This document shows positions 59,084 to 60,151 of a stretch of DNA of 64,000 nucleotides, piece by piece (position 1 is the first letter of the stretch; each line of letters starts with the position of its first letter). A program made the translations under genes and the position numbers. The DNA is from Eledone cirrhosa. Lineage: Eukaryota. The stretch spans positions 251,100,001 to 251,164,000 of the forward strand of contig OZ024741.1 of assembly GCA_964016885.1 (NCBI GenBank), in the 5' to 3' direction. The notes beneath the pieces are model-generated. The model saw only the letters and a program-made list of their open reading frames with translations, made no database searches and was not told where the DNA came from.

Positions 59084-59359
59084 CTCTCTTTGCGGCGCCA
59101 CCCTTGACGTGGGAAGAGAGCTTAAATCCGTGGTTAGATCTGTACGAGTGAGTCAGCCCGACGCATTTCTTTTTGCGGTTTAACGCGTTACCGTACCTTT
59201 GGAGGTTTGGCTCCTTTCGGAGGTTTTGAATCCTTTCAGAGGATTTGAAAGATCGAGCCCTCTTCGAGGGGTCGGTTCCGGGGTGCGGGTTCGGATTGGC
59301 TCGGTAGGTTTTACCATACTCGGTTGGTCTGCCACATTAAGGATGAACTAATTGGCGCC
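59084..59359 (+). ncRNA. HDV/CPEB3-like self-cleaving ribozyme candidate 1 (R2 5' ribozyme) with a ~210-nt P4 insertion
   Basis: P1 CTCTCTT 59084-90 / AAGAGAG 59114-20; P2 GGCGCCA 59094-100 / T(T)GGCGCC 59352-59; P3 CCC/GGG with L3 TTGACGT; P1.1 G-C; P4 ATCC 59126-29 / GGAT 59341-44; J4/2 GAACTAA with putative catalytic C59348. Manual fold, not computed. Confidence 0.8.
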
Positions 59360-60151
59360 TAAATTATGATTGTAATAATTATATAAAAATCATATATCCG
59401 TACGGTAGCTGGGGGCCGTTTTTAAACCAGTAACCGAGGGGTTGGGATGGGCCCCTTAGGTTTACTAACTACGGCGGGCCGCTGTGGTGGCTCCGTGATC
59501 ATTACAGTTGAGTGTGATGGGATGGGGAGTCGCCGTGGTGGTTTGCTGTGGTACTTAACCACCCTCGAGGGCTGACACGGAGCCGGGATACGCCCTCTGG
59601 ATTAGAGCCGGCTCAAACCTTTTTTTTTTTTGTGGGCGCGGAAGTGCCTTGAAACTCTCTCCCTGGTTTTTTTTTTATTAACTCGGTGAGCGGTCGGATA
59701 TAATATCCGAGAAGGAAAGGTAAGACGCCTCCGCCGTTCCGCTAGTCTGGTGGTTCGCCTTGGGAAAGCGATAGTACCACCTTATCCCCCCGTTGCAGGG
59801 TTACGCGTTGCTTAAAGAAAAGCGCTCTTTTTTTTTTTTTTTTGAACTATTATTATTAACAGTTTCGTTAATAATATTTTATGAATAGGTAGGGAGTGAT
59901 AAAATGGCTTCTGGAGCGCCCCACAACTTTTATTTTTTTTTATAGAGTACAATGTACGACCAGGGAGTTTGGAGCCTCCCTGCGCGGGATTCGGGCAACA
60001 GGATCTCCGCGCGGGGTTCGGTTCCGGTTGCTTACTTGGTGCGTACAACCAGATTGACAAAGTGGCACGGCCGGGAGGGCTTAGTGTCTTGCATGGTTCA
60101 CTCGCTGAGGTGGCTCCCAGCCAGCCCTCGCGAGGTCCATGGCTTGGCCTG

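Follow-up and report, generated by a model that had tools for sequence, protein, structure and literature searches.

A 1,216-nucleotide ORF-less R2 element (SIDE) ahead of an R2-A element in a 28S rRNA gene of Eledone cirrhosa

The locus and its rDNA unit

The window, that is the whole 64-kb stretch of Eledone cirrhosa DNA that was analysed, is occupied over positions 1-54400 by two satellites, and directly after the satellite, at about 54430, a host rDNA unit begins (Table 1). In this unit the 5' part of the 28S gene extends to the R2 target site near 59074, after which a short piece of the target is directly duplicated, as a 15-nt direct repeat (D19). Past the insert, the 28S sequence continues from C2:251165031, with (CCCTAA)n behind it, more than 10 kb of which lie interstitially on that side (L021:7400-10000). 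No 18S (SSU) gene was found by Rfam in the 64-kb window; full 18S genes elsewhere in the genome measure about 2.87 kb, a size that accords with a mollusc host, as do the TTAGGG repeats and the gastropod R2 relative mentioned below. The host unit (54430-59074; L021:7400-10000) is likely an orphan rDNA copy. At another place in the genome (G000:C6:50985000-51235000; L091, L098-L100), arrays of a 70-bp repeat from the 28S just past the R2 site were observed.

The insert consists of two elements in the same orientation. The downstream one is an R2-A element. The upstream one had been delimited in a first-pass annotation of the sequence as a structured non-coding segment of about 1.07 kb, with a second unit beginning after 60151. 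This boundary has to be moved, as the upstream unit runs on to 60299 and R2-A takes over from 60300; the segment represents the initial 1,068 nt of a non-autonomous R2 element (SIDE) of 1,216 nt.

Table 1. Features of the rDNA unit and of its insert (window positions).
Feature	Position	Strand	Evidence or remark
5.8S rRNA	54650..54808	+	Rfam RF00002
28S rRNA gene, 5' part up to R2 target	55445..59074	+	Rfam LSU matches
SIDE	59084..60299	+	14 other full-length copies, 13 ending at 28S +1
Predicted HDV-like ribozyme 1, long variable P4	59084..59359	+	motif scan across copies
Remainder of R2-B-derived 5' UTR, conserved helices	59360..59614	+	alignment to R2-B 5' UTRs
Deletion join at first U-tract, whole R2-B ORF missing	59615..59631	+	alignments switch from 5' UTR to 3' UTR
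R2-B-derived 3' UTR, covarying hairpins (59749-59781, terminal 140 nt)	59620..60299	+	61-82% identity to R2-B 3' UTRs
Heptamer, cleavage site 2 of the first-pass annotation, part of SIDE 3' UTR	60152..60158	+	occurs in stand-alone copies
R2-A element, three zinc-finger motifs	60300..64000, on to G000:C2:251165030	+	RVT_1 E=3e-30
Predicted HDV-like ribozyme core of R2-A	60314..60454	+	motif and folding analysis
R2-A ORF	60609..64000	+	in-frame TAA at 63285-63287 breaks it

The SIDE family and its relation to R2-B

A search of the 3.0-Gb genome with positions 59060-60160 as the query returned 62 matches. At the loci that were fetched, the match extends to the equivalent of 60299 and then gives way to the downstream half-site of 28S, TAGCCAAATG. 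Besides the window copy, 14 full-length copies were identified, 85-98% identical to it (83-100% within the whole family of 15), and 13 of these 14 end exactly at 28S +1. The occurrence alone in 28S, ahead of TAGCCAAATG, which the first-pass annotation had proposed as a check of its alternative SIDE model, was therefore found in 13 cases out of 14. The 3' ends are precise; the 5' junctions are varied and include duplications, a 2-nt slip and a short deletion. Copy L037 is 5'-truncated, part of the upstream 28S being deleted there, and copy L033, complete at both ends, is located outside rDNA within (CA)n. As had been claimed for the segment, the element has no credible ORF, its longest ATG-started frame measuring 75 aa and its longest stop-to-stop frame 126 aa. 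The features of an R2 SIDE were found together, namely insertion at the R2 site with a precise 3' junction, lack of an ORF, an R2-homologous 5' end that can be folded in an HDV-like manner, an R2-homologous 3' end with a conserved fold, and a multi-copy family with junction variation of the TPRT type.

At the best 27 of 30 loci, drawn from 98 matches, the downstream 28S site was classified, and the SIDE was the commonest insert at these assembled sites, its 3' end being found at 14, R2-B-type ends at six and R2-A at three, with two sites empty and two unassigned; because empty rDNA is under-represented in assemblies, as described in PMC13580325, these counts are not genome proportions. By coordinates, eight of the 11 full 18S genes scored, from 2,311 candidates, are followed by a full SIDE about 5 kb downstream, so that many copies sit in complete rDNA units. 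The near-identical neighbours L027/L028, L030-L032 and L023/L024 have probably spread through duplication of rDNA units and not through retrotransposition, as has been argued for the degenerate R2 of Bacillus (PMC4370867). SIDE or R2-B copies, or pieces of them, were also observed outside rDNA (L033, L041, L044, L046, L047, L051, L063), some of them in simple repeats, showing relaxed targeting. The older SIDE copies L036, L038, L039 and L046 are broken near SIDE position 385 by a 70-90-nt piece of upstream 28S, and in L039 an R2-A comes after this piece, as if the latter had re-created a target inside the SIDE.

Two R2 lineages are present in the genome, R2-A, with 86-97% identity to the protein of the window, and R2-B, with 52-58% (best copies, RT region). 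Positions 1-531 of the SIDE align to R2-B 5' UTRs and positions 537-1216 to R2-B 3' UTRs, with 81-92% identity over the initial 74-96 nt and 78-92% over the final 82-135 nt. The R2-B ORF lies about 30-40 nt beyond the end of the 5' part, and about 100 nt past its stop codon the 3' part takes up again. Double changes occur in 4 of the 37 pairs of the consensus fold of the remaining 5' UTR, while the part derived from the 3' UTR would likely be the RT-binding region. With R2-A, only the ribozyme core (51-59 nt) aligns, and no match to the R2-A 3' UTR was found in the SIDE 3' end by alignment. The expected sharing of a 3' end with an R2 3' UTR consequently holds for the R2-B lineage but not for the adjacent R2-A.

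Two other derivations were rejected. A descent of the segment from the adjacent R2-A is at odds with the missing 3' UTR match; as for a 5' leader of R2-A, which was to be always linked to the ORF, the R2-A copies L059, L039, L040 and L054 lack the segment, and the segment is found alone. A tree of 5' UTRs was built with midpoint rooting from 19 of 22 rows (L038, L049 and L068, in which the end pattern was not found, were left out). In this tree a 100/100 branch separates nine SIDEs from 10 R2-B-type rows, with a ladder-like order, the row named R2B_L040 being a short SIDE described below; such a topology would be consistent with one old origin of the SIDE 5' UTR.

The only intact R2 frame found is that of the R2-A copy L059 (1,214 aa), and every R2-B copy examined has a broken ORF (a single frameshift in L043, a missing C-terminus in L042); the rDNA arrays are incompletely represented in the assembly. 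Either an intact R2-B that is unassembled serves as the helper, or the recent spread took place by rDNA duplication, or R2-A acts as the helper. In a protein search with the R2 protein, the best matches were 39-42% identical and mostly unnamed, the best named one being a gastropod protein (39%). The L059 copy (G000:C2:166887600-166892542) lies in a complete rDNA unit and bears a copy of downstream 28S at its 5' junction. The R2-A 3' UTR, at 64160-64460 in window numbering (L021:5161-5461), opens with two repeats of about 145 nt that are 79% identical, and more copies of this repeat are seen in L059 and L060.

Predicted RNA structure and the excised-RNA reading

From a structural perspective, the 5' end of the SIDE can be folded into an HDV-like ribozyme (ribozyme 1), with helices P1 (59084-90/59114-20), P2 (59094-100/59353-59) and P3 (59101-03/59111-13), a 7-nt L3 (59104-10), a P1.1 made of G59106-C59121 plus U-U, and a putative catalytic C59348 in J4/2. 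The pairing of P2 is kept by compensatory changes across SIDE, R2-B and R2-A (GGCGCCA/TGGCGCC, GGCACCA/TGGTGCC, AACGCCT/AGGCGTT). At the Rfam gathering threshold only rRNA was found in the window, and at E<=10 no ribozyme family was found within 59000-61000; since Rfam gave no ribozyme match, the fold rests on our own motif and covariation analysis. A tandem array at G000:C3:332080000-332098000 (L049, L068) consists of a diverged R2-B subfamily with P2 AACGCCT/AGGCGTT. P1 would be formed with the 28S heptamer, which puts the predicted cut site at a distance of 11 nt from the nick, on its upstream side. The predicted P1 opens with a C-G pair at -11, although a 9-bp register from -13 is possible; the +1 base of HDV-like ribozymes is usually a purine, and a C-G pair there is unusual.

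The HDV-like cores of the SIDE (59084-59359) and of R2-A (60314-60454) are 71% alike over 59 nt. In the latter, P2 (60314-19/60449-54), P3 (60321-23/60331-33), P1' (60334-40) and a putative catalytic C60443 were recognised. In stand-alone R2-A copies, the heptamer of the upstream 28S provides the 5' strand of P1, preceding P2 by 17 nt in L039 and by 38 nt in L059. In the window this heptamer is displaced 1.2 kb from the R2-A ribozyme, and the sole 7-bp partner within 300 nt is the heptamer at 60152-58.

The SIDE RNA as a whole is strongly structured, in agreement with the first-pass annotation (MFE -476.8 versus -411.3 +/- 9.4 in 30 dinucleotide shuffles, z = -7.0). In the terminal 140 nt, double changes were counted in 8 of 28 pairs against 3.0 in shuffles, none of 500 shuffles being as high, although related sequences inflate such counts and the shuffle control ignores relatedness. 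All eight arms of the four helices named in that annotation, as well as both heptamers (59084 and 60152), are present at the positions given for them, but the helices fared unequally. GGTGGT/ACCACC covaries strongly (double changes in three of six pairs, 97.5% of cells paired), and TCGGATA/TATCCGA is conserved with little variation (a double change in one of seven pairs). The other two have no double change: GGGGGCC/GGCCCCT, which could still be a loop-loop pseudoknot, is 98% paired and overlaps a covarying alternative stem, and GGCTCCGTG/CACGGAGCC, whose 5' arm is present in six of 14 rows, overlaps a conserved GAGCCGG/CCGGCTC stem.

According to the main model of the first-pass annotation, both ribozymes cut and a 1.07-kb RNA (59084-60151), with a 5'-OH and a 2',3'-cyclic phosphate as its ends, is freed and closed by RtcB into a functional circle of the retrozyme or viroid-like type. 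We regard this as highly improbable. The pairing it calls for can indeed be drawn, since 60152-58 matches P1' of ribozyme 2 in 7 of 7 positions, with a probability of about 0.80 in a pseudoknot-free fold of 59950-60460; in a fold of 60030-60345, however, this probability drops to about 0.04 and the heptamer pairs with 60073-82 instead (0.95), the folds of 60152-58 being dependent on context and the program unable to fold pseudoknots. The local partner forms a 10-bp helix in 11 of 17 copies by a pattern search that missed the other six (L030-L032, L034, L038, L039), each of which has changes in the 5' arm. A CTCTCTY heptamer arises in just 1.9% of shuffles of the last 300 nt, but some 7-bp partner, with G-U allowed, in 25.7% of them. 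Loops J1/2 hundreds of nucleotides long do exist (PMC3774820). G60151 would here also capture C60341, the partner in P1.1, which speaks against the pairing.

Moreover, the heptamer 60152-58, which had been taken for the start of the second unit, belongs to the SIDE 3' UTR, where it resembles a variant of an internal repeat, and is kept in stand-alone copies behind which no second ribozyme lies. The arrangement of two ribozymes (SIDE, then R2-A) is found in one of 32 matches, in an rDNA unit without 18S, whereas the stand-alone copies carry one ribozyme; among the copies compared, none ends at 60151 and no R2-A starts at 60152. The segment is thus probably not an excised circular RNA. At most, a 1.07-kb release would happen by accident in this single tandem copy, whose rDNA unit has no 18S, and nothing suggests a selected 1.07-kb product or circle.

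Formation of the tandem and comparison with known systems

The SIDE of the window ends in ...CAGCTAACA and the R2-A behind it starts with TCGCCAACGG; other R2-A copies start with TAGCCAACG, which imitates the downstream half-site, R2-A reading TCGCCAAC/TAGCCAAC at its 5' end against TAGCCAAA in the half-site itself. The join (60299/60300) lies at the nick-equivalent base, with no 28S leader between the two elements. Because of this position, of the target-like 5' end of R2-A and of the missing leader, insertion into an occupied site is the likeliest origin of the tandem. Very probably, the segment is the initial part of a 1,216-nt ORF-less SIDE made of R2-B UTRs and likely inserted ahead of a resident R2-A; given a SIDE, a second TPRT at the occupied site is the origin we favour, with fair confidence. 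The SIDE would be co-transcribed with 28S, predicted ribozyme 1 would cut about 11 nt upstream of the nick, and an R2 protein would bind the fold of the SIDE 3' UTR and prime reverse transcription at the 28S nick, the element likely spreading by borrowing such a protein. R2 proteins read their target mainly upstream of the nick, 19-34 bp upstream (PMC12222951). As the upstream 28S recognition sequence is intact here and the R2-A 5' end is half-site-like, the occupied site could be nicked again. On being nicked anew it would have let the SIDE in before R2-A, an insertion that would have displaced the 28S strand which normally makes P1 of the R2-A ribozyme.

A register resembling TAGCC, again without a 28S leader, is common to the SIDE/R2-A join of the window, to the R2-B/R2-A joins (L040, L054) and to the short-SIDE/R2-B joins (L040, L034). 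The R2-A/R2-B joins (L054/L055) have no TAGCC match; measured from the upstream 28S motif, they fall at the distance of the nick to within about 1 nt. The joins in L040, L054 and L034 come from one array (C18) and are possibly not independent events. This array (G000:C18:15043000-15076000; L040, L054, L034, L055) forms, behind a single upstream 28S, a stack some 30 kb long in which a short SIDE, R2-B, R2-A, R2-B, R2-A, SIDE pieces and more follow one another head to tail, both lineages being represented. The short SIDE (L040:1161-1682 and L034 about 5400-5680), seen in the C18 array only, is an internally deleted R2-B derivative of about 520 nt, in which a CCTACCGGA microhomology marks the junction of the 5' UTR with the final 130 nt of the 3' UTR.

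The tandem could also have arisen, with a SIDE that is equally real, from unequal recombination or repair between SIDE- and R2-A-inserted rDNA units at a TAGCCAA-like microhomology. Downstream 28S and the R2-A 5' end do have up to 7 nt in common, and the unit, ectopic, without 18S and set between satellite and (CCCTAA)n, is for that reason a rearranged one. In the window, however, the homology is shorter, as the second base past the join differs both from 28S and from the other R2-A starts; furthermore, the same register recurs at the R2-B/R2-A and short-SIDE/R2-B joins, and the R2-A/R2-B joins lack the match. This origin is therefore considered unlikely. A jump in which the RT leaves R2-A RNA at its 5' end and moves on to SIDE RNA at its 3' end, the mechanism proposed in the first-pass annotation, would yield the order SIDE then R2, and template jumps of the R2 RT are reported in vitro and in vivo (PMC11371274; PMC3414825). 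A cleaved R2-A RNA is nevertheless predicted to open with the P1 strand taken from 28S and with the bases that lead to the nick, as in L039 and L059, and none of these lie between 60299 and 60300; on this account the jump is disfavoured, and we hold it to be improbable. The SIDE model as first put forward has thus to be kept for the stand-alone occurrence in 28S and for the predicted ribozyme of its own, and given up for its 3' boundary, for the 3' end shared with R2-A and for the jump.

Alternatively, SIDE and R2-A might have moved as one RNA, ribozyme 1 making the 5' cut and R2-A contributing the protein and the 3' end (cis hitch-hiking). It fits such a passage that the R2-A ribozyme is here without its 28S P1 strand, that the only intact R2 ORF found is of R2-A (L059) and that the SIDE has young copies, 98% identical to that of the window. 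The SIDE/R2-A composite was, however, found once among 32 matches, with a stop in its ORF and no second copy having the same join, and a joint movement has a slim chance in our judgement. We retain the insertion of a SIDE at a site already occupied by R2-A.

The segment is a further SIDE of the kind known from Drosophila and not a new class of RNA. A long-lived SIDE family in a mollusc widens a kind described, in the literature searched, only from Drosophila; in that literature, covered in part and through main texts, no R2 SIDE outside Drosophila was found, and the parts covered of PMC10946416, PMC13188248, PMC5035012 and PMC13580325 contain neither a mollusc SIDE nor a natural mixed tandem at the R2 site. 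As a natural template devoid of genes, the SIDE shows which UTR structures an R2 protein needs, which is of relevance to gene insertion with R2 (PRINT). From the tandem joins it would seem that an occupied R2 site can serve again. More speculatively, and with a low likelihood, target-like 5' ends could allow one 28S site to be re-used and mixed stacks to form (SIDE-R2A, R2B-R2A-R2B), with a SIDE that outlived R2-B, is mobilised by the unrelated R2-A protein and replaces the lost ribozyme of R2-A in the stacks.

Retrozymes, like the SIDE, are non-coding, structured, ribozyme-bearing and mobilised in trans, and carry tandem hammerheads in repeats of their own. In contrast to these and to viroid-like RNAs, there is one HDV-like ribozyme per unit here, the second belonging to the neighbouring R2, and the copies end at the 28S nick; two own ribozymes bracketing every copy were not found. 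The closest likeness is with R2Dwi_SIDE of Drosophila willistoni, an ORF-less insert of 529 bp at the R2 site (Eickbush and Eickbush, 2012; PMC3414825). Both elements combine the 5' ribozyme region of an R2 with an R2 3' UTR, have diverged from the parent R2 with compensatory changes and show varied 5' junctions. The present SIDE differs in its length (1,216 nt), with an almost complete 5' UTR, the greater part of the 3' UTR and no poly(A) end, in a P1 predicted to use 28S sequence instead of the element's own 5' end, and in its setting, a mollusc genome with two R2 lineages in which the SIDE is stacked on the one that is not its parent. Ribozyme activity was shown for the fly SIDEs (PMC3414825), whereas the ribozyme here is a predicted one.

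The HDV-like ribozymes of R2 elements cut in the upstream 28S, 9-36 nt upstream (Eickbush, Burke and Eickbush, 2013; PMC3774820). The predicted ribozyme resembles them in drawing the 5' strand of P1 from 28S within this range, and the junctions in showing duplications of upstream 28S; downstream-28S-like sequence at the 5' terminus of the element is known from earwig R2 (PMC3774820). On the other hand, none of the sites that the main text of that study names is at -11, and J1/2 (3-4 nt) and the long P4 (111-241 nt) set the present ribozymes apart. A P1.1 of one G-C plus U-U is as in CPEB3 (bioRxiv 10.1101/2022.09.22.508989). Finally, tandem R1 arrays with R2/R1 hybrid SIDEs in D. willistoni are likewise head-to-tail stacks, at one 28S site, of autonomous elements together with non-autonomous ones (PMC3414825). 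Those arrays occupy the R1 site and need a 14-bp target duplication, whereas the stacks described here occupy the R2 site, combine both R2 lineages and apparently depend on 5' ends that resemble the target.
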